This document shows, in pieces, positions 14,594 through 48,880 of a DNA stretch of 64,000 bases. The DNA is taken from assembly GCA_964529415.1 (NCBI GenBank), contig CAZGWD010000002.1, positions 30,089 through 94,088 of the forward strand, in the 5' to 3' direction. Source of the DNA: an uncultured Leptospirales bacterium. GTDB lineage: Bacteria; Spirochaetota; UBA4802; UBA5550. The notes under the pieces were generated by a model. It saw only the letters and a list, made by a program, of their open reading frames with translations. It was not told the DNA's origin and ran no database searches. How positions within the stretch are numbered: position 1 is the stretch's first letter; each line of letters opens with the position of its first letter. Both the position numbers and the translations under genes were made by a program.

Positions 14594-16213
14594 TTATAAT
14601 CTTTTCCTGAATTCCGTCGGGGTGCAATTCATGGTTTTTTTAAATGCATTTTGAAATGCAGTAACGGAATTGAATCCAACGGCATATACAATTGAGATTA
14701 CAGTACGTTCACGGTTCTCCAGCATTATATTTTTTGCTTCATTGATGCGATATTCATTGATAAAAGCATTAAAATTTTTTTTATAAACTTTATTGATAAG
14801 CGCCGACAACTGGTCCTGACGTATGCCTATGATCTCAGAAAACTTTTTTAAATTCATTTCATCGTCATAGAAAACTTTTTTTTCACCCATACTATTCTCT
14901 ATCCTCTGGATAATGGAAAATGAATCAAGCCCCCTGAGACGCTCTGTAAATCCGTATTCATTCCGCCAGTGAAGAGTTGTTATGAAATAGTGGAGTATAA
15001 TTACTATAAAAATTGCGTAATGTCCAAGCAAACCAATTGTTAAAATTGCCCTGTCGTAAAGCATATCGCTGAAAATACATAAAAAGCCGCCGGTAAAACC
15101 AATAAGCATATATAAGGCATTCTTTTCGTTTCTGATAGAGTTATCACCGTTGACCGAGTGTTCGATCAATATCCAGAAAATAAAAACAAATGGGACAATC
15201 CAGAGCGGATCAGCCACATTAATCCGGTACCAATGCCAGAAAACAATATCACGGCTTATCAATATAACAGCTGTGGATATCAGCGGGATTGCACTGGCTC
15301 CAATCATTAAATACTTCCGTACTTTTTTCAAAGGAGTGCCGGTGTCCGGAAACGTCCAGAATATAAACCACATCATCAGGTTAATCATAAAAAAATTTGA
15401 AATGTGTTCTGCACCTTTTAAAAACATATAGTCATCGCTGATATAGAACTTGAACTGGCTGCGCATTAGATAATAAACCGCGATAACAATACATGTAATC
15501 AAAAAGAAAGCCTGCCGATTCTCATATGACTGGAATATATAATGGTGAATATAAAGAGATGATACGAATATTATCATAATAACAATTAATATTTGTATTA
15601 AATTTTCTATGAAAAACTGTTTAAGGATGAAGTGTGAAACTCCGAGCAATGCGCTGCTTTGCACGGCAGCGAATCCTGCCTTGAAAGGATATAAACTCTG
15701 GACTCTTATTGAAAGTACATTTGGCCCGGCAGTTCTAATCAAGGATGACGGGATCGAATAAATCCTGATCTTGTCGCCGGCAAACTTACGGGGACGGGAG
15801 CCTGCCCCGTCAATGACTCCTTCGCTTCCAATAAAAATTCCGTTGAAATAAGTCTCATCTGCATCCTCTATGGGACCGAGGCGGAGCAGTAGCGGCTTAT
15901 CATGAAAAGCTGATGAAAAAGTAATAGTTAAGCGATACCAGCATATATTCTGTCTGGAAAACGGTCTGCGTGTTTCATCGCTCCAGTTATGCGGCAATGA
16001 ATCCACTGTTTCCCATTTACTGTCATCGTATCCCGGATCCCGATAACCTTTATTGTCATCGCCGCGGAATTTCCATTTATTAGGCATGCGACCGAGATTT
16101 AAGGACTCGTTCAGTTCAACCGGCACATTTACAGCAGCCTGTATGTGTATAACCGGAATAAGGATAAGAAAAAAAACCGCAATATACAGGGGAAGTCGAT
16201 ACATTTCAACCAT
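14594..16213 (-). CDS. Membrane-bound AraC-family transcriptional regulator with a 7TMR-DISM extracellular domain and 7TM region
   Basis: Signal peptide, an approximately 170-aa extracellular jelly-roll-like domain (RLGPIEDADETYFNG...), 7 TM helices, and a C-terminal AraC HTH (...AVGFNSVTAFQNAFKKTMNCTPTEFRKRL). Confidence 0.75.
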   Translation of the reverse strand: MVEMYRLPLYIAVFFLILIPVIHIQAAVNVPVELNESLNLGRMPNKWKFRGDDNKGYRDPGYDDSKWETVDSLPHNWSDETRRPFSRQNICWYRLTITFSSAFHDKPLLLRLGPIEDADETYFNGIFIGSEGVIDGAGSRPRKFAGDKIRIYSIPSSLIRTAGPNVLSIRVQSLYPFKAGFAAVQSSALLGVSHFILKQFFIENLIQILIVIMIIFVSSLYIHHYIFQSYENRQAFFLITCIVIAVYYLMRSQFKFYISDDYMFLKGAEHISNFFMINLMMWFIFWTFPDTGTPLKKVRKYLMIGASAIPLISTAVILISRDIVFWHWYRINVADPLWIVPFVFIFWILIEHSVNGDNSIRNEKNALYMLIGFTGGFLCIFSDMLYDRAILTIGLLGHYAIFIVIILHYFITTLHWRNEYGFTERLRGLDSFSIIQRIENSMGEKKVFYDDEMNLKKFSEIIGIRQDQLSALINKVYKKNFNAFINEYRINEAKNIMLENRERTVISIVYAVGFNSVTAFQNAFKKTMNCTPTEFRKRL

Positions 16214-20369: not shown

Positions 20370-21851
20370 ATGGTACTATTATTACTTAAATTATATAATG
20401 TGGAGATGTCTACCATCAGTACCATCGGGACATATATGTATAACTTTTTTGTTGTACTCGCAGTAGCTGCGGTAATAATTCTTGTATACAGGAAGCTTGC
20501 ATCTATGGGATACCCCATAGTCCGGTTAAGGATATTTTTTATTATTATTTCCGTAACAGGACTGCCTTCAGGATTCATCAGCTCGCGCTCAGCCAATCTA
20601 TTCTATTATCCGTCGCAGCTGTGGACCCCGGAACTGTTATGGGAACTGGCATCCTCCAGAACAGCCCATACATTTCATGCAGGAATAATTCTTCCAGCAG
20701 TATTGATCATGCTGCTTATTCTAATCATGCAGTTTAAATTTCTCCGCACACTGGACACATTTTTTCTTTTTCTTCCGATAGGAAATGCCATAGGCAGATT
20801 AGCCTGTTTAAACGTAGGTTGTTGCTGGGGGAATTATATTCCTCTGATCCATTTCAATAATCCAACCCCTTTCTATGACATTCTTTGCAATGTGGGAATT
20901 TTCATCATATTGCGAAAAATTCATAAAGGCATGTATCTTTCAGGCAACCCCGATGAAGATTCCCGCGAAAGTGGAAAAATAACCGCTTTGTATTTAGTAA
21001 TGTATGGTGTATGCAGGTTTTTAATGGAATACTTCCGCACTGAGGAAATAATACGATGGGGATTAACCCAGGCTCAGATCGTGATGATTATTTTCATTAT
21101 ACTGGGAATTTTAATCCTGATTTTTATAACAATAAAAAACCTTCCAAAACCGGTTGCAGCAGCCAAGCCCATAAAACAGATGAAGTATTTTTATCCCGCT
21201 GCTTTTGTCGCATATTTCCTTATTTTCTTTTTGTTAATCACATTGCTTTTCTTTTCAGATATTGCTTCGTGGCCGCTTCGTCCTGCGGTCAGCGCACTGA
21301 AGCAATACCTTTCTGTATTATGGTTTCTTCCGATTTTCATTATTGAGATGAGCGCTATATTCTTTCTTGTTATAACAAAAATAGACTGGCGCCATTCATT
21401 TAAAATAAACAGGAAGGATTTTCGTGATCCGTTTTTTATCACAGGCGTGATAGTAAGTATAGCCTATGCTGCGTCTGTTTATATAATAAATATTTCTAAT
21501 GAAGAAAATGCAATACGGGGTATCGCATACTGGCCCCCTGTTGCGATTTTGTGTGCTCTCAATGCATTGTCTGAGGAAGTCTTTTTCCGTATGATTATTT
21601 TCAGACTTCTTGAAAAATCTGCTGTAAAACCTGTTGCAGCAAACCTGATACAGAGCCTGCTGTATTCAAGCGTGCATTTGGCAATCGGAGGCCCGAAGTT
21701 TGCTCTTTACAGCTTCGTTTACGGCATGCTGCTCGGCCAGATCTATAAACGAACCGGAAGTATAATTCCTCCGATAATATGCCATATTATTATTGATATA
21801 GGTGTAATTGGATATCCTATTCTTCAATACTGCGTATGTATAAACCGTTGA
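20370..21851 (+). CDS. lgt: Fusion of prolipoprotein diacylglyceryl transferase (Lgt) with a CPBP/CAAX-type intramembrane protease
   Basis: The N-terminal half has the Lgt signature GRLACLNVGCCWG. The C-terminal half has the three CPBP motifs EEVFFR, SSVHL and CHIIID (EExxxR, FxxxH, HxxxD). Confidence 0.65.
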   Translation: MVLLLLKLYNVEMSTISTIGTYMYNFFVVLAVAAVIILVYRKLASMGYPIVRLRIFFIIISVTGLPSGFISSRSANLFYYPSQLWTPELLWELASSRTAHTFHAGIILPAVLIMLLILIMQFKFLRTLDTFFLFLPIGNAIGRLACLNVGCCWGNYIPLIHFNNPTPFYDILCNVGIFIILRKIHKGMYLSGNPDEDSRESGKITALYLVMYGVCRFLMEYFRTEEIIRWGLTQAQIVMIIFIILGILILIFITIKNLPKPVAAAKPIKQMKYFYPAAFVAYFLIFFLLITLLFFSDIASWPLRPAVSALKQYLSVLWFLPIFIIEMSAIFFLVITKIDWRHSFKINRKDFRDPFFITGVIVSIAYAASVYIINISNEENAIRGIAYWPPVAILCALNALSEEVFFRMIIFRLLEKSAVKPVAANLIQSLLYSSVHLAIGGPKFALYSFVYGMLLGQIYKRTGSIIPPIICHIIIDIGVIGYPILQYCVCINR

Positions 21852-21943: not shown

Positions 21944-23791
21944 ATGAACCCGTTATCCCTATTGTCTTTCTTTGCTTTTCTGGTATGTCTTTATTTCGGA
22001 CTGCATACTATCCGGAAAGAACCAGGCGCAATTCTCAACCGCGTTTTTTTTGTTTATTGCCTTACAGGTCAGATATGGTCTTTTGGTTATGTCTTCGTTT
22101 ACTCGGCAACTGTTCCTGCTGATATATGGTTCTGGTATAGATTTTCCTCTTTCGGCTGGTGCTTTATACACTCAACCCTGCTGCTGTTTATACTGATTCT
22201 GACAGGCAAAAAAAAGCCCCTTTTCAAATGGTGGATTTACATTTTAATCTACACACCTTCAATAGTTCTTCTTTACCGTTCATTAACCGGCATACTTATT
22301 GCAAAGGAATTTTATCCGACTCCATGGGGCAACGCCGAGATACTTGCATCCGATACTTTATGGTTTAACTTATATGCAGTCTACAACATCACATATCTTA
22401 TTCTCGGATGCGTAATTTTATGGAGATGGGCCGGAGCATCAGAATACACCCGCCATAAAAAGCAGGCAAAAATCATAATTATAAGCACCTTGTCATGCTT
22501 TATTGCAGCTTCATTTTGCAATATGGTAATTCCTGCAATGAAAATAAAATTTCCGGCCATTGGTGCGATATTTGCACTGGGAATCATTTTCGGAGCATGG
22601 TGGGCCATGTCGCGATACAAACTTCTAGTTATAACGCCGGAAATTGCTGCAGGCGAGATCATTTCAAAGATGATGGACATAATGATTCTTTCAGATGCAC
22701 AGGATAATATTATTTCTGTAAACAGGCAGACTGAAGATTTGCTCGGATACAGTTCAAACGAATTAAAGAAAAAGTCGTTGCTTGATCTAATTTACGAAAG
22801 TGAAGCATTCATTGAAAAATTAAAACCGGTCAAGAATGCCAAAAATACAAACTTTCAATTCGACGGCAATCTGATAACACACAAGGAAACGCACATACCA
22901 GTTAAAATTTTCTGTTCAGACATTAAAGACATGGCTGGAGAAGTTGTAGGTATAGTTGCGGTAGCTCATGATCAGCGGGATACGATCAATCTCGAATCGA
23001 CACTTAAAGAACTGCAGAAGACAAACCAGACATTAATTTTAACCAGGGATGCCCTCTGGGGTGAAATGCAGATTGCTAAAAAAATCCAGACAGTGCTTCT
23101 TCCTCTGAAACCAAAAATACATGGTTATCAGATTTCGGCATATCTTAAACCAGCTGATGAAGTCGGCGGAGATTATTATGATGTATTAAATATTGACGGA
23201 AGAGACTGGCTTATAATCGGAGATGTTTCCGGTCACGGGGTTCCAGCCGGGCTTGTAATGATGATGGTACAAACCGCTATACACGTAACCATAATAAATT
23301 TTCCGGATATAGCTCCTTCCGAGCTGCTATATAAAATCAACACTGCAATAACCGGCAACATCAATAAAATGGGCGAAAATAAGTATATGACGATCACAGT
23401 TTTCGCAATTCATCAGGGCGGGGAATTGACTTTCTCCGGACTGCATCAGGACCTGTTAATTTACCGCAATGCAACAGATACTATAGATGTTATTGAAACA
23501 AACGGAACGTGGATAGGAATTACGGATAATATCCGCGGAATAATGAAAGATGATTTCATCAAAATGGAAATTGGAGATATTCTGCTTCTGTTTACTGATG
23601 GTATTACAGAGTCTTGTGAAAAAAGAACTAAAAACGGAATCTGTATGTTTGGCGATGACAAACTAATAGAAACCTTTCACAAATCATGTAAAAAACAGGT
23701 GAAAGAAATATCAGATAGCATTATTGATGCTCTTGTAAATTACGAATGCACGGATGATATCACGATTGTGATTTTAAGAAGAGATCAATAG
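21944..23791 (+). CDS. Membrane sensor PP2C/SpoIIE phosphatase (N-terminal 7TM, PAS, PP2C)
   Basis: About 7 TM helices, a PAS-like segment (DIMILSDAQDNIISVNRQTEDLLGYSSNEL), and PP2C motifs (GGDYYDV...GDVSGHGVPAG...FTDGITE). Confidence 0.75.
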   Translation: MNPLSLLSFFAFLVCLYFGLHTIRKEPGAILNRVFFVYCLTGQIWSFGYVFVYSATVPADIWFWYRFSSFGWCFIHSTLLLFILILTGKKKPLFKWWIYILIYTPSIVLLYRSLTGILIAKEFYPTPWGNAEILASDTLWFNLYAVYNITYLILGCVILWRWAGASEYTRHKKQAKIIIISTLSCFIAASFCNMVIPAMKIKFPAIGAIFALGIIFGAWWAMSRYKLLVITPEIAAGEIISKMMDIMILSDAQDNIISVNRQTEDLLGYSSNELKKKSLLDLIYESEAFIEKLKPVKNAKNTNFQFDGNLITHKETHIPVKIFCSDIKDMAGEVVGIVAVAHDQRDTINLESTLKELQKTNQTLILTRDALWGEMQIAKKIQTVLLPLKPKIHGYQISAYLKPADEVGGDYYDVLNIDGRDWLIIGDVSGHGVPAGLVMMMVQTAIHVTIINFPDIAPSELLYKINTAITGNINKMGENKYMTITVFAIHQGGELTFSGLHQDLLIYRNATDTIDVIETNGTWIGITDNIRGIMKDDFIKMEIGDILLLFTDGITESCEKRTKNGICMFGDDKLIETFHKSCKKQVKEISDSIIDALVNYECTDDITIVILRRDQ

Positions 23792-23862: not shown

Positions 23863-25242
23863 ATGAAACCATTTCAGATTTTAGACAGCCAGATTAAAGG
23901 ATGGAAATCAATTATAAAACAATTGGAACATCCATATTTTTCATATTTTCTAATGAGATTTATCGCTCATCCCAAATTATTTTATGAAACTGATGCCAAT
24001 AAAGATAACAGGTATGGTTTTATGAAAGCAGGCGGAGGTTATGCAACGCCCAGAGAGCTGATTGCTCAAAAATATATGATAAAGGCTTTCCTGGAATCTG
24101 CAGGGGAAGCACGCACAGCGGATTTAAACAATGAACCTGTAATCTGGTTTGACTGGCCGGCTCCTGTAGAAATACTGAAGGCATTTAATGTTGCTTATTT
24201 CTGTCAGTCATTTTTCATGTTCGCATCACAGAGCAAAGGCGGACGGGGCGTAATAGAACAAATTGACGCCTGTGAGGATGAAAGAATAACCTCTGATTTA
24301 TGCAGTATGACCAGGATCTCATTCGGCGCCTATTTAACGGAGCAAATACCACGTCCGTCAGCTATTATAGGCACCGCCCACCCCTGTGATTCCGCCAGAA
24401 GTGTAAATCAGCTTTATGATTATTATACAGGTGTTCCAACATTTACTCTGGATACGCCGTATGGAAGGGATGAAGATTCACTTAACCATTACGCAGAAAA
24501 CGTATGGGAGATGATACGGTTTCTGGAGAACCATCTTGGAAAAAAAATAAACTGGGATAAACTAAAAAGCGTCATAGAAGAAGTAAATAAATATAATTAT
24601 TATTTCAGGGAAGTTACAATGATGCATAGAGCTATACCATCTCCCGGACTGGTTTTGCCTGAAATAATATCCTGGATAACAAATATATTTGCCTCTGGCT
24701 CCAAAAACCTGACTGCAATGGCAAAAATATATTATGAAATTTCAAAGAGAAGGATTAAAAAACCAAATTTTTTACGGGCAAGGAAGGAGAAAATAAGGGT
24801 TTTAATATGCGATACAACAGTGGTATTTACAGAGCTGTTCAGCTGGATGAAAAAAGAATTTGGCGCTGTTGTAGTCGGGGATTATGTTGGGGATAGAATA
24901 AACCCTGAAATTGATACATCTACACATGAGTCAATGGTAAAAGGGATTGCAGCGGATAAATTGTATATGGGCATGATAAGGCAGGCGCATGGTCCTATTG
25001 AATTTACCACAGAGGAATTAACAAGAAATATTGAAAATTTTTCAGCAGACTGCGTTATTTTCAATGGGCATATAAGCTGTAAATTCAACAGCTCTTCTCA
25101 AAAAATAATTAAAGATACATGCAAAAAAGCTGGAGTACCAGCACTTTTTATGGAGGTTGATATTTATGACCAGAGGGTAGTTCCGGAAAAAGAGATGCAG
25201 CGTCAAATTAAAGAATTTTTTGTTACAAATGGATTGATATAA
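23863..25242 (+). CDS. 2-hydroxyacyl-CoA dehydratase / benzoyl-CoA reductase family subunit (HGD-D fold), large
   Basis: 459 aa with HgdB/BcrB-like organisation (...PVEILKAFNVAYF...). First gene of a tight operon. Confidence 0.7.
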   Translation: MKPFQILDSQIKGWKSIIKQLEHPYFSYFLMRFIAHPKLFYETDANKDNRYGFMKAGGGYATPRELIAQKYMIKAFLESAGEARTADLNNEPVIWFDWPAPVEILKAFNVAYFCQSFFMFASQSKGGRGVIEQIDACEDERITSDLCSMTRISFGAYLTEQIPRPSAIIGTAHPCDSARSVNQLYDYYTGVPTFTLDTPYGRDEDSLNHYAENVWEMIRFLENHLGKKINWDKLKSVIEEVNKYNYYFREVTMMHRAIPSPGLVLPEIISWITNIFASGSKNLTAMAKIYYEISKRRIKKPNFLRARKEKIRVLICDTTVVFTELFSWMKKEFGAVVVGDYVGDRINPEIDTSTHESMVKGIAADKLYMGMIRQAHGPIEFTTEELTRNIENFSADCVIFNGHISCKFNSSSQKIIKDTCKKAGVPALFMEVDIYDQRVVPEKEMQRQIKEFFVTNGLI

Positions 25243-26391
25243 ATGCAAACACTAAAAGAGATAAAACAAATTTCAGAAAGTTTATTTAATTCACATCTTG
25301 AAAAAGCGAAGCAGGATGGAAAAAAAATAATAGGATATTTCTGTACTTATGTTCCAGAAGAGCTTATTCACGCAGCCGGTTTTATACCATATCGCATGCG
25401 TGCGGTCGGAAGCACGGGAACTACGTTAGGGGATACATACTATTCTTCAAAAAACTGCAGTTACGTGAGACATTGCTTTGATCTGGCACTGCAGGGAAAT
25501 TTTCATTTCCTGGATGGAGTCATTTTCATGAACGGCTGCGATCACAACAGAAGGATGTATGACAACTGGAGATATGCTGGAATTAAACCTGATTTTCTTT
25601 ATATGCTGCCTGTGCCGTATGTTCTTGCTGATCCATCTCTTAAACAGTATATTAATGAAATCAACAAGCTGAAAAAAAATATTGAAGACTATTATAAAAT
25701 AAATATTACTGATGAAGCTCTTGAAAAAGCCATAAAACTATATAATAAAAAAAGAAATCTGTTATCCGGAATATATGAAACCAGAAAACAGAAAAATGTT
25801 CCTATTAAAGGAAGCGAACTCCTTAGTGTAATGCTTGCAGTTACCGCGCTTCCTGTTGAAACCGCCAATGACATGTTAGAAAAGATTTTAATCGAATTAG
25901 ACGGCAGAGTGATATCAAATGACAATGATATAAGATTGTTTATTGCCGGAAACTGCATTGAAGAAAGTGAGCATATGGAATTAATTGAAGATTGCGGAGG
26001 TGTTATTGTTTCAGATAAAACATGTCTTGGTTCTGATTATATTGATTCAAATATCAAGGAAGACCTCGACCCTATTGTTGAAATTTCCAGAAGATATCTT
26101 AACCATCTTTCCTGTCCAAGAATGGTAGATGATTTTAGAAATAGATTAAAACATCTCGATACAATGATTAACCTTTATGATGTTGATGCTGTTATTCTGG
26201 ACAAGCTTGAGTTCTGTACATTGTTTACAATGGAATCTGTTTTATACCGCAAGGAATTAAAAAAAACAGGGCTTCCCGTACTTGCTTTTGACCGGGAATT
26301 CTACGGGGGCGGAACAGGACAGATTAAAACAAGAGTACAGGCATTTTTTGAAAAAGTAAGAAACAGACAAAAGACTTCAAAGGGCTTATGA
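25243..26391 (+). CDS. 2-hydroxyacyl-CoA dehydratase / benzoyl-CoA reductase family subunit (HGD-D fold), small
   Basis: 382 aa. It has the N-terminal motif IIGYFCTYVPEELIHAAGFIPYR, characteristic of HgdA/HgdB/BcrC with the cluster-ligand Cys. Its start abuts the upstream stop (TAAATG). Confidence 0.75.
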   Translation: MQTLKEIKQISESLFNSHLEKAKQDGKKIIGYFCTYVPEELIHAAGFIPYRMRAVGSTGTTLGDTYYSSKNCSYVRHCFDLALQGNFHFLDGVIFMNGCDHNRRMYDNWRYAGIKPDFLYMLPVPYVLADPSLKQYINEINKLKKNIEDYYKINITDEALEKAIKLYNKKRNLLSGIYETRKQKNVPIKGSELLSVMLAVTALPVETANDMLEKILIELDGRVISNDNDIRLFIAGNCIEESEHMELIEDCGGVIVSDKTCLGSDYIDSNIKEDLDPIVEISRRYLNHLSCPRMVDDFRNRLKHLDTMINLYDVDAVILDKLEFCTLFTMESVLYRKELKKTGLPVLAFDREFYGGGTGQIKTRVQAFFEKVRNRQKTSKGL

Positions 26392-26434
26392 AAGTATAAC
26401 AAATTGAAATTAATAATGTTTTTAAGGAATAAAA

Positions 26435-27214
26435 ATGATATTTGCCGGTTGTGATGTAGGTTCGCTGACCGCGAAAGCGGTTATCATTGAAAATTCCAGG
26501 ATTATTTCCAGGAAAATAATCCGCGCAAAAGCGACTGCCCTTAAATCTGCTAACGATGTAATGAATGAGGCATTACATGATATTGGACTTGAAATAAAAG
26601 ATATTGATTTTTGCTGCAGTACAGGGTATGGAAGATTTTCCATTCCCTACTCGAATATAAATAAAAGTGAAATATCCTGCCATGGTCTCGGCGCATTCTG
26701 GGTTGATAACTCTATAAGAACTGTAATAGATATCGGCGGACAGGATTGCAAAGCAGTTTCGATTGACGAGAATGGACTGGTTAACGATTTCATGATGAAT
26801 GAAAAATGCGCAGCAGGAACAGGCAGGAGTCTTGAAATTTTTTCCAGGACATTGGGACTTGAACTTGATGAACTTGGACCAATTTCACTTGAATCAAAAA
26901 AAAAGATTGAGATATCAAATAAATGCAGCATTTTCATGGAACTGGATATAATACAGCAGCTATATCATAAAAGTAAAAAATGTGATATAGCGCGGGCCGT
27001 CAACAGCGCTGTAGCCCAAAGGGTTATTCACCTTGCAAGATCAATAGATATAAAACCTGATATTTGCATAACAGGCGGGGTCTCAAAAAATGCAGGTGTT
27101 GTAAAAATACTTGAAGAACTCCTGAATATGAAATTTAAAATTTTATCAGAGGATCCTCAATTGATTGGAGCAATAGGCGCTGCTGTTTTTGCAGAACAGG
27201 AATATAAATTATAA
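26435..27214 (+). CDS. CoA-substrate-specific enzyme activase (HgdC/BcrA/BcrD-type ASKHA ATPase), copy 1
   Basis: Alignable throughout to HgdC: CDVGSLTAK...TGYGR...DIGGQDCKAV...EKCAAGTGR...CSIFME...ITGGVSKN. Both [4Fe-4S]-bridging cysteines are present. Confidence 0.85.
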   Translation: MIFAGCDVGSLTAKAVIIENSRIISRKIIRAKATALKSANDVMNEALHDIGLEIKDIDFCCSTGYGRFSIPYSNINKSEISCHGLGAFWVDNSIRTVIDIGGQDCKAVSIDENGLVNDFMMNEKCAAGTGRSLEIFSRTLGLELDELGPISLESKKKIEISNKCSIFMELDIIQQLYHKSKKCDIARAVNSAVAQRVIHLARSIDIKPDICITGGVSKNAGVVKILEELLNMKFKILSEDPQLIGAIGAAVFAEQEYKL

Positions 27215-27278
27215 ATCCGGCATTTGATGATGAACTATTCCAGTTGACAATTATAATAACACAAGGAAAAGGCAAAGT

Positions 27279-28076
27279 ATGATAACCATGGGCTATGATA
27301 TTGGAACCCGGTTTATAAAAACATGCATAGTGGAAGATAACAAAATATTAGGCTTTTCGATCAGGGAAACCGGCATGGATTTAAAAAAATCGATTGATGA
27401 ATCTTCTTTTTCTGCAATTGAAATGGCAGGTATAAAAAAAAGAAAAATAGCAAAATCAGCAGCTACAGGTTATGGATGTGAAATGCTTGAAAAAACAGCC
27501 GCCACAATCAGTGAGGATGTATGCCTTGTAAAAGCGGCATATCACCTTGACAGGAATATCAATACTGTTATTGATGTTGGCGGATTATTTATTCATATAG
27601 CTACTGTCATCAGTGGAGGACGGGTCGGGGATCATTGCGAAAATGAAAAGTGTGCAGCAGGAAGCGGAAAATTTCTTGAGATAATTTCAGAAGCAGTTGA
27701 TATTCCTATTGCATCAATTTCTGAAACTGCATTAAAATCATCAAATCCATATGCCCTGTCAAACAGCTGTTCGGTATTTGCCGAGAGTGAAGTTATTTCT
27801 CAAATAAATGCAGGCACTGACAGTTCTGATATTATTGCAGGTGTCATCAATACTATAGCTGAAAAAATTGCAACTTTGATAAACAGGATCGAGGCTCCTG
27901 ATAAAATTGCAGTTGCAGGCGGAGTGGCAAAAATAGAAGCCTTTAGAATAATACTTGAGAAGGTCTTAAACAGAAAAATTTTCACTTTGCCTGTAGATTT
28001 TCAAATTGTTACAGCATATGGAGCAGCATTGCATGCCCAGGATAAACCTGTAAAAAAGAACAAGAGAAAAAACTGA
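27279..28076 (+). CDS. CoA-substrate-specific enzyme activase paralogue, copy 2 (divergent nucleotide motif)
   Basis: Same fold (YDIGTRFIK...TGYGCE...EKCAAGSGK...CSVFAESEVISQ...AGGVAK). DVGGLFIHIA replaces the DIGGQD motif. Both cluster cysteines are retained. Confidence 0.8.
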   Translation: MITMGYDIGTRFIKTCIVEDNKILGFSIRETGMDLKKSIDESSFSAIEMAGIKKRKIAKSAATGYGCEMLEKTAATISEDVCLVKAAYHLDRNINTVIDVGGLFIHIATVISGGRVGDHCENEKCAAGSGKFLEIISEAVDIPIASISETALKSSNPYALSNSCSVFAESEVISQINAGTDSSDIIAGVINTIAEKIATLINRIEAPDKIAVAGGVAKIEAFRIILEKVLNRKIFTLPVDFQIVTAYGAALHAQDKPVKKNKRKN

Positions 28077-28852
28077 TGTTTGCTGAACAACAGAAAGAAT
28101 CAAAAAATATATCAGAATTTCAGGACCATTCTTATCTTATTAAAAAATGTTATGATCTGCTATACGATGCTGAAAATAATTTTACAGAATACAAGTGGAA
28201 AAATATAAAGGATTTAAAAAAAACAGGTTTTAATAAAAAAAAGAAAGGGAAATCTTTTATTGTAATGGCAGAAGATACATCAGTTGAACTTGGTTCACCT
28301 GAAAATATCTCAATAAGCTGTGTCTTGTGGACTAAAGAAAATTTGCTTATCAAGAATAGCATATGGATTGCCGGAAAGGAATTATCGCAAATCAAGGGGA
28401 AATCTGTATCATTTCTGCAGGTTATAATGATTCAGCCGGGTGATGAAGATGATCCGACTGACCCGCTGCTTCAGGGATTAAAAAACCTTTCAAATAAAAT
28501 TCCAGGATTAATGACACGCAGTATAACCGGTAAAATGTGGATACGAATACATAAAGATCTGATGAAAAAAAAATTCACTCTGTATTCTTTGGGTAAATAT
28601 CTGCACGAAGCATATAAAGAATCAATGCCGAATATTAAAGGAATTGATATTATTCTATGTGCTGATGATCCGCAGATTATTTCAAAATTTGAGCCAATCT
28701 ATAAAACAACAAAAATAATCAACGGTGAAAATCAAAAACTAAAATGGGTAGAAGATGGTGTTGTATCCTGTGAAGAGCTTAATTGCAATACCTGCGAAGA
28801 ACAACCGGCGTGTGATATAATTAAAGATATTGTTGTAAAAAGGAAAAAGTAA
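28076..28852 (+). CDS. Cys-rich protein of unknown function (C-terminal Cx4Cx2Cx5C)
   Basis: Its start overlaps the upstream stop (TGATG). The C-terminus reads SCEELNCNTCEEQPACD. No recognisable family. Confidence 0.5.
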   Translation: MFAEQQKESKNISEFQDHSYLIKKCYDLLYDAENNFTEYKWKNIKDLKKTGFNKKKKGKSFIVMAEDTSVELGSPENISISCVLWTKENLLIKNSIWIAGKELSQIKGKSVSFLQVIMIQPGDEDDPTDPLLQGLKNLSNKIPGLMTRSITGKMWIRIHKDLMKKKFTLYSLGKYLHEAYKESMPNIKGIDIILCADDPQIISKFEPIYKTTKIINGENQKLKWVEDGVVSCEELNCNTCEEQPACDIIKDIVVKRKK

Positions 28853-28854
28853 AA

Positions 28855-29637
28855 TTGGAAAAAATAAATAAAAATAAATCTCCGGTAATTATTGCATACC
28901 TGGGTAAAGGCGGATCAGGAAAATCGATCCTTTCATCTATAACGGGTAAGATTGCCATTAATAAAAAGAAAAAAATACTTTTTATAGATGCCGATCCTGC
29001 TATGGGTTTAGCTACTGCTCTGGGAATAGATGGATTTAAGACAATAGGAGAGGCACGGGAAGAGATAATACAACAGGCTAAAATATCAAACACCGATGAA
29101 CATGTTTCAGAGATTATTGATTACCTGCTTCTTGAAGCTCTTTTCGAAACAAAAGATTTCAGCATGATAGTTATGGGGCAAACGCAAACAATTGGATGTT
29201 ACTGCCCAATCAATAATCTTTTAAAGGATACAATTGAAAAAATTTCATCTCATTATGATGTTGTTATTATTGATGCTGAAGCAGGCATTGAGCAGATTAA
29301 CAGACAGGTAACAGAGTCAGTTCATTACCCTTTAATTGTTACAGATAATTCCGTAAGAGGAGTACGAACTGCCATGCTTGTAAATGATGCCATTAAGCGG
29401 GCTCCAAAAATGACTCCAATCAATTCAGGGGTAATTTTCAACCGTATTGAAGGCGATGTTGATCATGATCTTCTGGAGATGATTAAAGGCGGATCTTTAT
29501 CCTTTTACGGCTCAATCCCTGCTGATAAAATTATTACTGAAAGAGACATGAAAGGTTTATCAGCACTGGAAATGCCGGAAGAAGCCATATCCATCAAGGC
29601 TCTTGAATTGATATTGAATAAAACAGGCATTTTATAA
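28855..29637 (+). CDS. CooC/AcsF-family metallocentre-insertion ATPase (MinD/ParA superfamily)
   Basis: Deviant Walker A (GKGGSGKS), IDADP, the signature CxC motif (TIGCYCP), and Walker B (DAEAGIEQ). It starts 3 nt after the upstream stop. Confidence 0.8.
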   Translation: MEKINKNKSPVIIAYLGKGGSGKSILSSITGKIAINKKKKILFIDADPAMGLATALGIDGFKTIGEAREEIIQQAKISNTDEHVSEIIDYLLLEALFETKDFSMIVMGQTQTIGCYCPINNLLKDTIEKISSHYDVVIIDAEAGIEQINRQVTESVHYPLIVTDNSVRGVRTAMLVNDAIKRAPKMTPINSGVIFNRIEGDVDHDLLEMIKGGSLSFYGSIPADKIITERDMKGLSALEMPEEAISIKALELILNKTGIL

Positions 29638-40375: not shown

Positions 40376-41557
40376 TTATTCTATGCTTCTTCTGAGGAAT
40401 GTTGGAATTTCAAGGTCGCCATTGTCGAATTCTCTTGATCTTTTCATTTCCTTTTCAATATTAAACACGCCGCCGTTTTTTCTTACCTGAGGCTTTTCAT
40501 TGCTTCCGTCAATTAAAGTAAGCGCAGGACCTATCTTTCTGTCATAATCATTGGCGTGGCCGAGAACCGCGTTCATTCCATTTTTGGAAAGCATGTTTTT
40601 CTTTTTATCAAATCCTGTTGCAATAACCGTAACACGCACTCTTTCATCAAGAGCAGAATCAATGGTTGTACCGAAAATAATATTTGCATCCGGATCAACC
40701 TGCCTTGTTATTAAATCCGTAACCTCGTTAACTTCGTGAAGGGAAAGATCATTGCCGCCTGCGATATTTATCAGAACCGCTTTTGCGCCTTCAATGCTTG
40801 TATCTTCAAGAAGCGGGCTGTTGATTGCCATCTGTGTTGCTTCAAGCGCCTTGTTTTCACCAACTCCGATCCCAACACCCATTAGCGCATCGCCTGTTTC
40901 CTTCATTACGGTTTTCACATCCGCAAAGTCAACATTCACAAGGCCGGTAACCATAATGAGATCAGCTATACCCTGAACGCCCTGACGGAGGATGTCATCT
41001 GCAAGCTTGAACGCGTCTTCAATTGGAGTTTTTCTGTCGATAATTTTAAGTAGCAGATCATTTGGAATTGTAATGAGAGTGTCTACTTTGGTTTTCAGAT
41101 TTACTATACCCTCTTCTGCGCGGGACATTCTTTTTTTACCTTCGGTTCTGAATGGTTTGGTTACTACTCCAACCACGAGAGCGGACTGTTCTTTTGCTAT
41201 CTCGGCAACAACAGGCGCTGCACCTGTTCCTGTTCCGCCTCCCATGCCTGCAGTAATGAAAACCATATCAGCACCCTTGAGAGCTTTCTGGATTTTATCC
41301 CTGTCCTCATTTGCAGCTTCACGCCCCACATCAGGGTTCGCGCCTGCACCGAGTCCGCGCGTCAGCTTGCCTCCGAGCTGAATCTTCACAGGAGCGAGGC
41401 TGTCGCGAAGCTGCTGCGCGTCTGTATTGGCTACAATGAATTCAACGCCCTCCATGCCTGTAGCGATCATTCTGTTTACTGCATTGCAGCCTGCTCCACC
41501 GACTCCGATAACCTTGATAATCGTGCTGAGCGGCCTTTCTTCCTCTAATTTAAACAT
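40376..41557 (-). CDS. ftsZ: Cell division GTPase FtsZ
   Basis: Tubulin signature GGGTGTG; NAVNRM; C-terminal conserved peptide. Confidence 0.95.
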
Positions 41558-41603
41558 CGTCCTCCCCCCTTACTTTATTATGTCTCATTAGAAATTATAA
41601 GAT

Positions 41604-42827
41604 TTAAAGATATTCCTCAAACCACTTCTTAACCTTGTCAAAAACGCCGGCCTTTTCCATTTCAAATCTCGGCCTGTTTCTGAACTTGCTCATCTTGATT
41701 CCATATTTTAAAAGCCCCACGCCATTTGCAAACTGAGGTGTGCCCACTACATCCTTTAATCCCACTATATCTCTCGGACTGCCTATGCGGACAGGTATAT
41801 TCATTACTCTTTCTGCTGCTTCAACGCATCCATCAAGCATGCTGCCGCCGCCAGTCAAGACCACTCCGGCAGAAAGCATATCCTTCTTGCCGCTCCTGAT
41901 AAGCTCGTTGTCAACCATCTCCATGATCTCAGTCATACGAGGGCCGATAATCTGTGTCAGTTCCTGGCGGAAAAGCCTTCTCGGTGCGCGTCCGCCAACT
42001 GACGGAACCTCAACCATTTCAGTTGCATCAACAAGGTCAAGTGCTGCGCATCCGCTTTTTTTCTTTATCATTTCAGCTGATTCAAAAGGTGTCCGGAGTC
42101 CGATAGAAATGTCGTTTGTTACGTGAATCCCGCCTACGGACAATACGGAAGAATAAGCAACACCGCCTTCAAGGAATACGATAATATCTGTAGTGCCGCC
42201 GCCTATGTCAACAAGAGCTACTCCAAGCTCCCTTTCATCAGTGCTGAGTACAGCTTCAGCAGTTGCAAGAGGATTGAATACTATATCCTGGTACTGGAAA
42301 CCGGCCTTGTCCACTGCCTTCATCATGTTCTGGAGGCTTGTTACAGCTCCTGTGATTATATGCACTTCAGCCTCAAGCCTTACTCCGCTCATGCCAACAG
42401 GATCCTTGATTCCCTGCTGATCGTCTACAGTGAATTCCTTGGAGAGGACGTGAAGAATTTCCCTGTCAACCGGAATGAGGATTGCCTGGGCCTGCTCAAT
42501 TACTCTTTTTACTTCAACATGGCTGATTGTTCTGTTACGGTTTGTGATTGCTACAACGCCTTTTGAATTTTCGCCCTTGATCTGCTGGCCGCTGATGCCC
42601 ACGTAAACCCCTGCAACCTCGTGTCCAGCCATAAGTTCCGCATCTTCAATTGCTTTTTCGATAGATGATGACGTGTTATCAATATTAACGATAACTCCGC
42701 TTTTCATTCCCCTGGATGGAGAAGTTCCAACACCAACAATTTCCACCTGCTTGTTTTCGTTTTCAAAACCGATTACAGCGCAGGTTTTAGTGGTTCCAAC
42801 ATCCAGGCCGACTATCATCTCTTCCAT
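41604..42827 (-). CDS. ftsA: Cell division protein FtsA
   Basis: Actin-like ATPase (VGLDVGTTKTCAVIG...DIGGGTTDI); C-terminal amphipathic helix. Confidence 0.9.
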   Translation of the reverse strand: MEEMIVGLDVGTTKTCAVIGFENENKQVEIVGVGTSPSRGMKSGVIVNIDNTSSSIEKAIEDAELMAGHEVAGVYVGISGQQIKGENSKGVVAITNRNRTISHVEVKRVIEQAQAILIPVDREILHVLSKEFTVDDQQGIKDPVGMSGVRLEAEVHIITGAVTSLQNMMKAVDKAGFQYQDIVFNPLATAEAVLSTDERELGVALVDIGGGTTDIIVFLEGGVAYSSVLSVGGIHVTNDISIGLRTPFESAEMIKKKSGCAALDLVDATEMVEVPSVGGRAPRRLFRQELTQIIGPRMTEIMEMVDNELIRSGKKDMLSAGVVLTGGGSMLDGCVEAAERVMNIPVRIGSPRDIVGLKDVVGTPQFANGVGLLKYGIKMSKFRNRPRFEMEKAGVFDKVKKWFEEYL

Positions 42828-42834
42828 AGTTCCG

Positions 42835-43533
42835 TTACCTTATAACCACTGCATCAGTCCTGAGATCAACCATTTCAGGATTGCGTTTGATTCTGTCCAT
42901 GTACCCTGCAGTAAATTTCAATTTGATAAAATTCATATACCCGCTGTTTATTTTAAAAAGTGTTCTTCTGCCTTTTAGAACAACATTCAGGCTTCCGTCG
43001 CTGTTAATTTTTATTTCGTCAAGATCGCCATAAATCGGATCGTTCTTTTTTAACTGCTCAAGCATCCGGTTTATATTTTTCACCCTGATAGAAAGAGTTC
43101 CCCCTGCTGCATCCTTCTCGTCAATTATCACAAGAGGAAATCCGGCTGAATAAACCCTTCCGGCTGATATCGGTCTGAAATTCAAATCTGTTTCAAACGG
43201 TATCAGTCTGCCTCCCCTGGATATTGCCAGGAGCATAACCGGTTTTTTTTCCTTAATTTCAACGATCAAACGTTCATTTGATTCACTGACATTAAAACTT
43301 TCTATGTAAGGTTCTTCTGCTAATACCCTGTTTAATGAATCCATGCTGACTGAAATGATACCGTTTTCCGATTTCACCTTTGTTCTTCCGAACAGTTCAT
43401 ATTTCGAAAGATACTCAAGTCCGCGGAATTCAATTGCTCTAACCTTGCGTATATTATCAGCACCGATCGCAATGTCAAGACATATTATGTCTACAAGGAA
43501 AAAGATTATTAATTTTATTAATTTTTTTTCCAT
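42835..43533 (-). CDS. ftsQ: Cell division protein FtsQ/DivIB-like (POTRA)
   Basis: N-terminal TM followed by POTRA-like beta-rich domains, in the ftsQ position of the dcw cluster. Confidence 0.6.
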   Translation of the reverse strand: MEKKLIKLIIFFLVDIICLDIAIGADNIRKVRAIEFRGLEYLSKYELFGRTKVKSENGIISVSMDSLNRVLAEEPYIESFNVSESNERLIVEIKEKKPVMLLAISRGGRLIPFETDLNFRPISAGRVYSAGFPLVIIDEKDAAGGTLSIRVKNINRMLEQLKKNDPIYGDLDEIKINSDGSLNVVLKGRRTLFKINSGYMNFIKLKFTAGYMDRIKRNPEMVDLRTDAVVIR

Positions 43534-43539
43534 TTCAAT

Positions 43540-43690
43540 TAATCTTTATTAATAAAAATTAATTTTTATTAATAAATTTCTCCCTTTGATTGCCCCCTGC
43601 CCCCCATAGGGGGCACGTGATAAACAATTATTGCTAATGCAATCTAATATTATTTCTCACAAACGCCCCCTCTGGGGGACGGGGGGGAAA
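43540..43690. repeat. Intergenic element inside the dcw cluster: a tandem 19-bp repeat containing the palindrome TTATTAATAA, plus two GC-rich hairpin modules
   Basis: AATTAATCTTTATTAATAAA / AATTAATTTTTATTAATAAA, then CCCCCC-ATA-GGGGG and CCCCC-TCT-GGGGG-ACGGGGGGG within otherwise AT-rich DNA. Confidence 0.6.
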
Positions 43691-43696
43691 ATCATT

Positions 43697-45064
43697 TTAT
43701 CTTCCAAGTTCATCTAAAATTTTTCTGCCGGCTTTATAAATATCACCTGCACCGAGAGTCAGGATCAGGTCTCCGCTTTTTGCCTTTGCAAGAACCCTTG
43801 CAGGTATATCTTCAAACCTGCTGATTATCTCAACGCTGCGCCCCTCGTGCTTCATTATTGAATCCTGAATCAGTTTTGAGGAAACACCCTCTATTGGTTT
43901 TTCACCTGCAGGATAAATTTCCGCCAGAAAAAGCTCATCAGCATTTGAAAAGCTCTGGCCGAAATCATCCCAGAGAAGCCCGGTTCTTGAATACCTGTGA
44001 GGCTGAAAAATCACAAGCACGCGCCTGCCGATTTTTTTTATCGCTTTAAGAGTTGCGCGCACCTCTGTAGGATGATGCCCGTAATCATCATATACCGCAA
44101 TTCCTCCGCCTTCTCCTATTTTTTCAATTCTTCTGCCGACTCCGCTGAATGACGCAAGTCCGCACCTGATTGCCTCATACTCAAGTCCAAGATCAACTGC
44201 AACTGCTATAACAGCAAGCGCGTTCAGAACATTATGCCTGCCAAGAAGATTTATTTCAAAAACACCGATTTTTGAATTTTTAAAATACGCGGTGAATTTT
44301 GTTTTTGCTTCAGAAAACTCTACGCAGTCCGCCCTGAAATCTGAATCATCAGAGAAACCGTAGGTAAAATACGGCCTTTCCACAAGAGGCAGAAGTTCTC
44401 TGATAATATTATCATCAATGCATAAAGCGGAAAAACCGTAAAAAGGAATATTATTTATATATTTCAGGAATGCATCTTTCAGCCCCTCAAAATATTTGTA
44501 ATGGTCAAGGTGGTCAGCGTCAATGTTTGTAACCACGCCGATTGTCGGAAAAAGATTCAGAAAAGTTCCATCGGACTCATCAGCCTCAAAAACAATATAA
44601 TCCCCTTCGCCAGTTCTCGCATTGGATTCAAAATTAAAAACCTTGCCCCCGATAACAGCAGTGGGATTCATGCCGCAGTGATAAAGAACATACGCCATAA
44701 TTGAAGAGGTTGTGGTTTTCCCGTGAGTGCCTGCAACTCCGATTCCGTGCTTTAGGCGCACAAGTTCTGCAAGCATCTCCGAGCGGTGAATTATCGGTAT
44801 GCCTCTTTTCCTTGCTTCAATAATTTCCGGATTATTCAGATCAATGGCGCTCGATGTGACCACAACATTGTAATCCTGGATGTTCGAAACATAATGACCA
44901 ATGTAAATCCTCGCACCCAGCTTCTCAAGCATACGCGTCTGCTCAGATTCATGAAGATCCGAGCCTGAAACTTCATAACCCATATCAATCAGGATTCCTG
45001 CAATACCGCTCATCCCTATTCCGCCTATTCCAATAAAATGCATTTTTTTTGATTTTCTGAACAA
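43697..45064 (-). CDS. murC: UDP-N-acetylmuramate--L-alanine ligase
   Basis: HFIGIGGIGMSGIA; GTHGKTTT. Confidence 0.9.
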   Translation of the reverse strand: MFRKSKKMHFIGIGGIGMSGIAGILIDMGYEVSGSDLHESEQTRMLEKLGARIYIGHYVSNIQDYNVVVTSSAIDLNNPEIIEARKRGIPIIHRSEMLAELVRLKHGIGVAGTHGKTTTSSIMAYVLYHCGMNPTAVIGGKVFNFESNARTGEGDYIVFEADESDGTFLNLFPTIGVVTNIDADHLDHYKYFEGLKDAFLKYINNIPFYGFSALCIDDNIIRELLPLVERPYFTYGFSDDSDFRADCVEFSEAKTKFTAYFKNSKIGVFEINLLGRHNVLNALAVIAVAVDLGLEYEAIRCGLASFSGVGRRIEKIGEGGGIAVYDDYGHHPTEVRATLKAIKKIGRRVLVIFQPHRYSRTGLLWDDFGQSFSNADELFLAEIYPAGEKPIEGVSSKLIQDSIMKHEGRSVEIISRFEDIPARVLAKAKSGDLILTLGAGDIYKAGRKILDELGR

Positions 45065-45201
45065 GATTATTTCTCCATATAAAGCGCGATGCGCAATTTT
45101 ATTTATTTCTTAACGAATTTAAGGCCGGTTTCAAAAACTAAAGTTTTTTCCACAGCGCCTTAGTGCATTTAAGGGAAAAACCTGCATTTTTCATCTAAAA
45201 T

Positions 45202-46326
45202 TTATGATAAATGCTGGTTTTTATTACCGCCCTTAATAATATTCGACACTATAACTTCAGCAGCATCTTTTTTTGATATATTAAATGCCTTGTCGGACAT
45301 TTTCTTCAGCAGTCTGTCATTTCCGAGAATTGAAAAAAGCGTCTTAACAAGATTTTCCTCAAAAGACTCATCTTCCATAATTTTAACTGCAGCTCCGGCA
45401 GATACAAAAGCGTCGGCATTTTTATTCTGATGATCGAGTGCTGCAAAAGGATATGGAATAAGAATGGATGGAATGCCGAATGTAGCAAGCTCCATCATTA
45501 CACCTGCACCGGCCCTGCTAACAGCAATATCCGCAGCCTTATAGCTCAAGCCTACATTTTCAATGTACGGAGAAAGATAAACTGATCCTGCATCAGCGCC
45601 CTCCTGAAGTATTGACTTGAATTTTTCATAGGAATAGGCTCCTGCACTCCATATAATTCCGATTCCATCAAACTGATCCTGATGCTTTTTCTTTATATTA
45701 AAAATTGTTTCATTCAGCTTCATGGATCCCTGGCTTCCGCCAATTACAAGTATTACTTTTTTCGCGTGACTCATGTGAAAAGCTTTTTTGGCATCCGCTT
45801 TTTTATCTGATGTCAAAACGCTTGTTCTGATAGGATTTCCTGCGCACATCAGCTTGCCTGGAAATTTCAAATAGGGTCTTGATTCCTCGAAGGTTCCATA
45901 CACAGCATCAGCGTATTTTTCGAACATTGAAGTCACCCTGCCCGGGATTACATTCTGTTCGCAGAGATATATGGAAATTTTTTTAAATTTTGCAGCAAGC
46001 AGTGCAGGAGCAGAAACATATCCTCCCATGCCGATTACAGCACTCACATTATTCTTCTTTATAATTCTTACAGCAGTGAATACTGCTGCAAAAAAACTTA
46101 TTACAAAAAACGGCAGCTTAAATATATTTCGCGTAATCGAAGGAGCGCCATATAGAAATAAATCCGCATCATCAATTTCCTTAAACAGGGAAAACTTTTT
46201 ATCTTTTTTCCCGGAAAGATAAAGCGCCTGAACATTCTGCCTTTTGAATTCCCTGTAAATTGCAATTCCAGGGCTGATGTGCCCCCCTGTTCCTCCGCCG
46301 ACAATTAAAACTTTTCCTGTTATCAC
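45202..46326 (-). CDS. murG: Undecaprenyl-PP-MurNAc-pentapeptide GlcNAc transferase
   Basis: GGGTGGHISPGIA; GT28 fold. Confidence 0.9.
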   Translation of the reverse strand: MITGKVLIVGGGTGGHISPGIAIYREFKRQNVQALYLSGKKDKKFSLFKEIDDADLFLYGAPSITRNIFKLPFFVISFFAAVFTAVRIIKKNNVSAVIGMGGYVSAPALLAAKFKKISIYLCEQNVIPGRVTSMFEKYADAVYGTFEESRPYLKFPGKLMCAGNPIRTSVLTSDKKADAKKAFHMSHAKKVILVIGGSQGSMKLNETIFNIKKKHQDQFDGIGIIWSAGAYSYEKFKSILQEGADAGSVYLSPYIENVGLSYKAADIAVSRAGAGVMMELATFGIPSILIPYPFAALDHQNKNADAFVSAGAAVKIMEDESFEENLVKTLFSILGNDRLLKKMSDKAFNISKKDAAEVIVSNIIKGGNKNQHLS

Positions 46327-48857: not shown

Positions 48858-48880
48858 TTAAAACCCGGTATTAAAATAAA

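Follow-up and report, generated by a model that had tools for sequence, protein, structure and literature searches.

A conserved tandem pair of activase-type ATPases with one canonical and one remodelled nucleotide site beside a predicted double-cubane enzyme in an uncultured Leptospirales bacterium

We analysed a stretch of 64,000 nucleotides (the window) from an uncultured Leptospirales bacterium (assembly GCA_964529415.1, contig CAZGWD010000002.1, positions 30,089 to 94,088, forward strand), which encodes two tandem activase paralogues, here called copy 1 and copy 2, together with the alpha and beta subunits of an HGD-D family enzyme. Copy 1 has a canonical ATP site, whereas the site of copy 2 is remodelled in a way that is conserved across several phyla, and the helix of copy 1 that would face the remodelled site has changed reciprocally. 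A heterodimer with one dead ATP site is well supported by these patterns of conservation, and the conserved paired design suggests that the enzyme powered by the pair runs on a single ATP site. We consider it fairly probable that this one-ATP-site heterodimer feeds a BzdNO-like enzyme that is more likely a reductase than a dehydratase. The pair is a variant within the known HgdC/BcrAD-type ATPases, and not a new kind.

The coupling of ATP hydrolysis to low-potential electron transfer in the class formed by benzoyl-CoA reductases (BCR), 2-hydroxyacyl-CoA dehydratases (HAD) and double-cubane cluster proteins (DCCP) is still unresolved (PMC9351452), and the ATP count per electron is likewise unsettled. 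A conserved heterodimer in which one site is switched off and the contact across the subunits is rewired would be a ready-made natural half-site mutant. With it one could test whether a single ATP site suffices, which hydrogen-bond route signals to the cluster, and whether such pairs serve ATP economy in energy-limited anaerobes. In addition, the locus points to a widespread, unannotated enzyme family whose substrates could be sought, with a BzdNO-like cofactor signature and unexpected accessory proteins of acetyl-CoA-synthase (ACS)-domain and CooC type.

Results and discussion

Two activases in the same register

Both copies are HgdC-type ASKHA ATPases that score above the TIGR00241 cutoff (125 bits) and above that of PF01869. 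The duplication that gave rise to them is ancient rather than recent, since they share only 31% identity. Six landmark motifs nevertheless have the same numbering in both copies (residues 7-14, 78-83, 99-106, 122-130, 161-167 and 214-219). The canonical nucleotide site consists of DxGS...K, a catalytic Glu, DxGGQDxK and GGxxxN, and copy 1 has the expected residue at every position, with D7-V-G-S, E79, D99-I-G-G-Q-D-C-K106 (nt 26729-26752) and G214-G-V-S-K-N219, a signature identical to that of HgdC, HadI and MbdQ. Copy 2 departs from this site, with D7-I-G-T-R-F-I-K14, D99-V-G-G-L-F-I-H106 (nt 27573-27596) and G214-G-V-A-K-I219, and Leu83 stands in place of the His of the SEISCH motif.

A preliminary description of this DNA, made from the sequence alone, had reported DIGGQD in copy 1, DVGGLFIH at the equivalent place in copy 2 and both bridging cysteines retained in copy 2, all of which is confirmed. 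The degeneration of copy 2 goes beyond what had been seen then, as the Lys of the second loop, the Asn of the adenosine motif and the SEISCH His are lost as well. Pairwise alignments (phmmer) of the loop with HgdC (1hux), HadI (4eht), MbdQ/MbdP (9gai) and DCCP-R (7yyl) contain no gaps, and therefore GGLF occupies the GGQD position. The AlphaFold2 (AF2) model of copy 2, with a predicted confidence (pLDDT) of 91.4, gives template-modelling (TM) scores of 0.86-0.92 to HadI, HgdC, MbdQ, MbdP and DCCP-R, because of which the model places copy 2 within the same ASKHA subfamily as these ATPases. The alignments and TM scores thus answer both doubts attached to the preliminary description, namely that the GGLFIH segment might not be homologous to the GGQD phosphate loop, or that copy 2 might belong to a different ASKHA subfamily. 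The closest solved relative of copy 1 is MbdQ (9gai_D, 199 bits); for copy 2 it is HgdC by sequence (142 bits), and HadI and HgdC by fold.

The TM scores of the copy 2 model to other ASKHA families are about 0.5-0.7. Among these fold matches is TsaD-TsaB (YgjD-YeaZ), which is also an ASKHA-fold pair, made of an active TsaD and its paralogue TsaB, which is catalytically inert. Unlike the window pair, TsaD-TsaB functions in the synthesis of N6-threonylcarbamoyladenosine (t6A) in tRNA and has no Fe-S cluster, so that the kinship is at the level of the superfamily only (TM about 0.65).

Both copies retain Cys125 (NEKCAAG) and Cys164 (SNxCS), which align with C115 and C152 of DCCP-R, the ligands of the [4Fe-4S] cluster that bridges its subunits, and are predicted to bridge such a cluster here.

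A rebuilt nucleotide site conserved in the copy 2 clade

A search of a large protein collection with copy 2 retrieved 2002 homologues at E<=1e-10. The best 120 of these 2002 come from Spirochaetota, Smithella/Syntrophaceae, Desulfatibacillum, Ignavibacteriales and other groups, and almost all of them carry DxG[GA][LF]F[IL] together with DxGTRFxK. When 267 HgdC-type sequences were aligned, copy 2 belonged to a cluster of 137, which includes Spirochaetota, Smithella/Syntrophaceae, Myxococcota and other groups, and which we compared with 93 canonical sequences taken as reference (Table 1).

Table 1 Residues at the nucleotide and cluster sites in the copy 2 clade and in canonical HgdC-type sequences
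Position	Copy 2 clade (137 sequences)	Canonical reference (93 sequences)
First-loop Ser	Thr in 136/137	Ser
Residue after first-loop Ser/Thr	Arg in 134/137	variable
Next first-loop residue	Phe in 114/137	variable
Second-loop Gln	Leu in 133/137	Gln in 93/93
Second-loop Asp	Phe in 135/137	Asp in 93/93
Lys of GGQDxK	kept in only 5/137	Lys in 93/93
His of SEISCH	hydrophobic or Thr	His in 90/93
Adenosine-motif Asn	I/V/F/L/M in 137/137	Asn in 89/93
Glu equivalent to DCCP-R E69	kept in 87/137	Glu in 93/93
Two cluster cysteines	kept in 137/137	kept in 93/93

In DCCP-R, S9-N11 and G92/Q93/D94 hold the phosphates, and the candidate base is D94 or E69. A network of hydrogen bonds to the cluster loop originates at K96 and D94, and G92/Q93 of one subunit are linked via water to S158*, which lies on the partner subunit's cluster helix (PMC9351452). 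The residues that replace the canonical ones in the copy 2 clade are themselves strongly constrained, which argues that the pocket has been rebuilt and is probably filled in, and copy 2 would be a divergent, probably non-hydrolytic member of the HgdC type.

A different reading, in which copy 2 still binds or hydrolyses nucleotide via other residues (for example T10-R11 and K14) and the pair has two chemically different sites, draws on observations that weigh against a dead site. The first phosphate loop of the clade is invariant at D7, G9, T10, R11 and K14, a strong constraint which hints at a remaining role of the pocket; the adenosine Gly-Gly is retained and the overall fold is unchanged. 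The equivalents of Q93, D94 and K96, however, are lost together in nearly all of the clade, and that of E69 in about a third of it (this Glu is still present in the window's own copy 2). The replacements are mostly hydrophobic, the Asn having become I or V, and the contacting helix of the partner is hydrophobic as well, to which a filled-in pocket is better suited than a new catalytic one. We therefore regard a second, chemically different site as unlikely.

Copy 2 also evolves faster than copy 1 (mean between-genome identity of 44.5% vs 58.4%), as would a functionless, decaying duplicate. Against such decay stand an intact reading frame, a gene called at the identical length of 265 residues in public assemblies and a confident structure prediction; the near invariance of the substituted residues across 137 sequences from several phyla rules out a pseudogene, to which we assign practically no probability.

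Reciprocal changes in the two copies

The canonical copy-1 gene lies directly upstream of copy 2 in 12/12 related loci that were readable at this point, and the intergene gap is -4 nt in 5/8 related loci measured. In the window the two genes are 64 nt apart, and AAGGAAAAGG forms a good ribosome-binding site 5' of the copy 2 ATG.

In single-gene, presumably homodimeric activators the cluster helix following the second cysteine reads C-[TA]-V-F-A-E-S. The helix of copy 2 is canonical (C164-S-V-F-A-E-S170), whereas that of copy 1 is altered to C164-S-I-F-M168-E-L170. CSIFMEL is found in 11/13 copy-1 sequences, the window's included, and the other two have CSIYMEL and CSIYMEI, so that the positions equivalent to A156 and S158 of DCCP-R are Met and Leu (Ile in one) in 13/13 copy-1 sequences, and Ala and Ser in copy 2. 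Mapped on DCCP-R, Q103 of copy 1 faces S170 of copy 2 and the polar route is intact, while L103/F104 of copy 2 face M168/L170 of copy 1 and a hydrophobic contact replaces the route.

The alternative without pairing would have copy 1 act as a homodimeric activator and copy 2 as a separate homodimer, an ATP-independent [4Fe-4S] electron carrier or scaffold. Either copy could in principle homodimerise, as both bridging cysteines are present in each, and the single-gene activators HgdC, HadI and DCCP-R are homodimers. Yet the helix of copy 1 is altered precisely at the contacts with the partner loop and that of copy 2 is canonical, a reciprocal pattern that makes sense only in a mixed dimer. In addition, the adjacency of the two genes is strict, frequently with a 4-nt overlap, and the homologous MbdP/MbdQ-type pair is a heterodimer within the four-subunit enzyme in the solved MbdONPQ complex. 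Two separate homodimers are thus improbable. The upstream partner gene, the 4-nt overlaps, the kept bridging cysteines and the reciprocal helix change make a heterodimer the best reading, and we infer from them that the two proteins associate physically and that copy 2 has lost hydrolysis.

In the mechanism that we propose, copies 1 and 2 would assemble into an obligate heterodimer bridged by a [4Fe-4S] cluster, an electron-activating ATPase of the HgdC/BcrAD 'archerase' type. ATP would be hydrolysed by copy 1 alone, and copy 2 would be a conserved pseudo-ATPase that gives half of the ligands to the cluster and a cluster helix that is intact. In homodimeric DCCP-R each phosphate loop is wired to the cluster within its own subunit and via Ser158 of the partner. 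In the heterodimer one cross-subunit route would be kept (from copy 1 Q103 to copy 2 S170) and the other replaced by the hydrophobic patch between copy 2 L103/F104 and copy 1 M168/L170, and for this reason the module would work as a one-ATP-site engine, delivering low-potential electrons to the co-encoded alpha/beta enzyme.

A single working site could also save ATP, but this stays a conjecture, because one ATP per electron is tabulated in a review for BCR and HAD alike.

Asymmetric ATPase pairs in related loci

The closest solved precedent for two different ATPase subunits is MbdONPQ, the 3-methylbenzoyl-CoA reductase (9gai/9gal/9gba), a class I BCR which, like the window locus, combines two HGD-D subunits with two different HgdC-type ATPase subunits. 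MbdQ has the canonical GGQD, while MbdP is altered (GGQT, Glu to Asp, the Cys of SCH to Ala, and Asn to Trp), and MbdQ has Ala at the Ser158-equivalent position that faces the altered loop of MbdP. The degeneration of copy 2 is far more radical, with LF rather than QT and the Lys also lost. The asymmetry of MbdP/MbdQ may already be described with the 2026 MbdONPQ structures.

One GGQD-K subunit is paired with one altered subunit in 47/56 two-ATPase loci, and the remaining 9/56, all from a Burkholderiales group, have two canonical sites. The preliminary description had likened a pair with one catalytic and one degenerate site to BcrA/BcrD. This analogy is supported only in part: the GGQD of MbdQ and the GGQT of MbdP do make an asymmetric pair, but a much milder one, and the Burkholderiales group, which resembles MbdONPQ, keeps GGQD in both subunits. 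We do not call this group 'Bzd-type', as it does not reach the Bcr and Bzd equivalog cutoffs, below which all ten candidate ATPases from five loci score.

We then compared each phosphate loop with the Ser158-equivalent residue of its partner, as directed comparisons in 56 tandem pairs with MbdP/MbdQ included. Of the comparisons with a canonical GGQD loop, 58/64 have Ser in the partner, and of those with an altered loop, 35/48 have a non-Ser residue there (Fisher p=4e-12, a value that ignores shared ancestry). About ten different residue combinations, which vary with the lineage, show this covariation, among them LF with Met/Leu, GGQF-R with Gln, GAQH with Thr/Phe, GGNT with Val, GGQS with Thr, and the GGQT of MbdP with the Ala of MbdQ. 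Apart from the neglect of ancestry in the p value, two points reduce the weight of these counts: the loci were chosen by similarity to copy 2, so that the sample is biased, and there are exceptions, as the partners of GAES-K and of several GGQT loops keep Ser.

From these pairs we would draw only a tentative and rather doubtful generalisation: that heterodimers of a live and a filled-in site are the rule across the BCR/HAD/DCCP superfamily, with several independent origins and with loop and partner helix changing together. The LF clade of copy 2 would be the extreme case and, with its ACS-middle-domain and CooC-type proteins, a new class of double-cubane ATP-driven reductases of strict anaerobes that spend at most one ATP per electron.

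A locus in a Syntrophaceae metagenome-assembled genome (L009, 5051-18521) contains three HGD-D/ATPase modules in a row, with CdhC-like and CooC-like genes present. One of its ATPase pairs combines GAED with GGLS, so that neither subunit has GGQD. A tblastn search with MbdP against plasmids retrieved only another uncharacterised cluster, on pAZKH of Azoarcus KH32C.

The co-encoded alpha/beta enzyme

The closest solved relative of the beta subunit is BzdN (8s02_B, 131 bits), and each of its Cys34, 72, 99, 261, 291 and 325 has an aligned cysteine in BzdN as well as in DCCP (6/6), compared with 4/6 in HadC and 3/6 in MbdN. The six are kept in 12-13 of 13 orthologues, and the seventh, non-ligand cysteine of DCCP is absent, as in BzdN. 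In the solved proteins it is these cysteines that coordinate the [8Fe-9S] double-cubane cluster (PMC7317905; PMC11971306), which in BzdN is proposed to store at least 2 electrons for stoichiometric reduction (PMC11971306). A profile of the alpha subunit (12 orthologues) scores 104 bits with BzdO, 86 with DCCP, 77 with HadB and 62 with MbdO. Cys147, Cys175, Cys397 and Cys406 are invariant in 14 alpha orthologues; Cys147, 175 and 406 align with the cluster cysteines of BzdO, which leaves one further invariant cysteine in alpha.

The benzoyl-CoA reductase BzdNO(PQ) of Aromatoleum sp. CIB (8s02; PMC11971306), with its six-cysteine [8Fe-9S] subunit BzdN and its three-cysteine [4Fe-4S]-OH2 subunit BzdO, therefore provides the best solved relatives of beta and alpha, but at low similarity, in a comparison that covers the catalytic subunits. 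The genes follow the layout of a class I benzoyl-CoA reductase, with two HGD-D and two distinct ATPase genes contiguous over 23863-28076. They do not follow that of a dehydratase, with a single-cluster beta subunit and one homodimeric activator gene, as all six cysteines and two ATPase genes are present. The window proteins belong to the same families as HadBC/HadI and HgdAB/HgdC (PF06050, PF01869/TIGR00241), but HadI and HgdC are single-gene homodimers with two canonical sites. DCCP and DCCP-R (6eno, 7yyl) share with the window the six double-cubane cysteines and an HgdC-type ATPase. They differ in that DCCP is homodimeric and has a seven-cysteine motif, and that the DCCP-R homodimer is symmetric, with two active sites, whereas the window encodes distinct alpha and beta subunits and two distinct ATPases.

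On the predicted cofactors the enzyme is BzdNO-like, without being a benzoyl-CoA reductase in the strict sense: its scores remain below the NCBIfam cutoffs for BzdN (134.9 vs 453.8), BzdO (31.9 vs 448.6), BcrC (134 vs 421), BcrB (24.6 vs 486.55), BzdQ (181 vs 380), BcrA (154 vs 578) and BcrD (114 vs 313). We propose that the six-cysteine subunit would store electrons on an [8Fe-9S] cluster and the three-cysteine subunit would be catalytic with a [4Fe-4S] cluster, and that the substrate of alpha/beta is probably an acyl-CoA, with stoichiometric reduction more likely than dehydration. The presence of the [8Fe-9S] cluster and the reductase chemistry are what we infer from the six cysteines of beta, which give moderate support to chemistry of this type.

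The preliminary description had drawn the same conclusion from the degenerate motif. That does not follow, since a dead ATP site is silent on whether the electron is consumed or recycled.

Several further observations count against the reductase reading. A reductase can do without the six-cysteine pattern, because MbdN, from a true reductase, has only 3/6. Of the two acid/base residues of BzdO beside the open iron of its [4Fe-4S] cluster, His131 aligns with Ala178 of alpha (Ser in the orthologue consensus), and the alignment stops short of Glu65. All Bcr, Bzd and double_cubane scores lie below cutoff, beta reaching 223 bits with the double_cubane model NF040772 against a cutoff of 350. A related locus (L085) has GlcD/GlcF-like 2-hydroxyacid oxidase genes downstream.

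Some of these points would fit a redox-neutral radical enzyme, such as an atypical 2-hydroxyacyl-CoA dehydratase, in which the catalytic electron is recycled as in HadBC/HadI. HadB has Ala at the position of the catalytic His131 (PMC11971306), the family is annotated everywhere as dehydratase activase, and relatives stand beside genes of beta-oxidation type (thiolase, acyl-CoA dehydrogenases, enoyl-CoA hydratase) or, at L085, beside the GlcD/GlcF-like genes. Such an enzyme is possible, though we hold it to be less probable than a reductase, given the full double-cubane set in beta that HadC lacks, the electron storage proposed for the BzdN cluster, the two-gene ATPase encoded with the catalytic subunits as in reductases, and the ferredoxin co-encoded in several relatives.

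The contrast between the gamma subunit MbdN (9g87_B/9gai), with three of the six cysteines, and BzdN, with all six, indicates that class I reductases may differ in carrying the [8Fe-9S] cluster.

Accessory genes of CdhC and CooC type

The two genes that follow copy 2 place a free-standing ACS middle domain and a CooC-like ATPase inside an HGD-D/activase operon. The AF2 model of the CdhC-like protein, built from database homologues (pLDDT 81.5), matches only ACS chains in the PDB among its top 23 hits, over about 160 residues with a root-mean-square deviation of 2.3-4.3 Å. Its C-terminus has four invariant cysteines (C232-x4-C-x2-C-x5-C246), and a word-indexed search gave only 15 homologues.

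The CooC-like protein resembles the nickel-insertion ATPases CooC/AcsF in having a MinD-type deviant Walker A motif (G17-KGGSGKS24) and C115-Y-C117; the CxC is invariant in 9 orthologues and is a hallmark of CooC, and no NCBIfam CooC model scores above its cutoff for this sixth gene. Among the sampled loci, CooC-like genes occur only beside asymmetric ATPase pairs (15/47 such loci vs 0/34 others, Fisher p=1e-4). Besides the window, L022, L034, L040, L044, L068 and L078 carry them, archaeal loci included (Archaeoglobus, L078), and no nickel enzyme is evident near them.

Candidate roles of the two accessory proteins are cluster or metal maturation, electron donation and CoA binding. A literature search for a link of CooC or ACS-like proteins to BCR/HAD enzymes returned nothing relevant, and we know of no CdhC-like or CooC-like partner of the 3-methylbenzoyl-CoA reductase.

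Locus organisation and neighbourhood

In the list of open reading frames (ORFs) of the window, the six genes run head to tail on the + strand over 23863-29637 (Table 2). The start codon of beta directly abuts the stop codon of alpha, and the start of the CdhC-like gene overlaps the stop of copy 2 (TGATG). In a scan for an operon promoter and terminator, counts were not above those of shuffled controls.

Table 2 Genes of the HGD-D/activase locus in the window
Gene product	Position	Strand	Support
HGD-D family alpha subunit, 459 aa, putative substrate-binding, one predicted [4Fe-4S]	23863..25242	+	Pfam PF06050 E=1e-52
HGD-D family beta subunit, 382 aa, six-cysteine double-cubane [8Fe-9S] signature	25243..26391	+	Pfam/NCBIfam and cysteine alignment
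Activase copy 1, 259 aa, canonical ATP site	26435..27214	+	PF01869 E=1e-52; TIGR00241 245 bits
Activase copy 2, 265 aa, remodelled nucleotide site	27279..28076	+	PF01869 E=1e-27; TIGR00241 166 bits
Free-standing acetyl-CoA-synthase middle-domain-like (CdhC-like) protein, 258 aa	28076..28852	+	PF03598 CdhC E=5e-9
CooC/AcsF-like MinD-family P-loop ATPase, 260 aa	28855..29637	+	Pfam AAA_31, CbiA, Fer4_NifH

Orthologues of the four core proteins are encoded in loci from Spirochaetota, Leptospiraceae, Smithella, Syntrophaceae, Desulfomonilia and Myxococcota, where genes for a thiolase, an AMP-forming CoA ligase, a nitroreductase-family protein, a ferredoxin, a GMC oxidoreductase and acyl-CoA dehydrogenases are frequent additions. 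In five of these loci (L001, L003, L011, L012 and L019) the recurrent neighbours are an SCP-x-type thiolase, the AMP-forming CoA ligase, a protein of about 148 residues without a Pfam hit, the nitroreductase-family protein, ferredoxin and the GMC oxidoreductase, a set that looks like a conserved acyl-CoA pathway of the LF-type enzyme. None of the accessory genes of these loci, the GlcD/GlcF-like genes of L085 included, is present in the window, which was searched with the neighbour proteins of L001 and L003; apart from the six cluster genes, this search gave only a weak similarity to AraC regulators at 14603-16087. In the window, of which not every gene is annotated, the parts that were examined showed no genes of a benzoyl-CoA pathway.

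Directly upstream of the operon and on the same strand lies a 7TM-PAS-SpoIIE (PP2C phosphatase) sensor gene (21944-23791, +), which was not a cluster neighbour in any related locus examined. It is preceded by a single 493-aa ORF (20370-21851, +) in which a prolipoprotein diacylglyceryl transferase (LGT) domain is fused to a C-terminal Rce1-like CAAX protease domain. Further downstream, the minus strand carries a complete cell-division and cell-wall cluster (40376-52865), which places the host among uncultured bacteria of the spirochaete phylum: it comprises murE, murF, mraY, murD, ftsW, murG, murC, ftsA and ftsZ, and its FtsZ is about 80% identical to FtsZ from uncultured Spirochaetota genomes.

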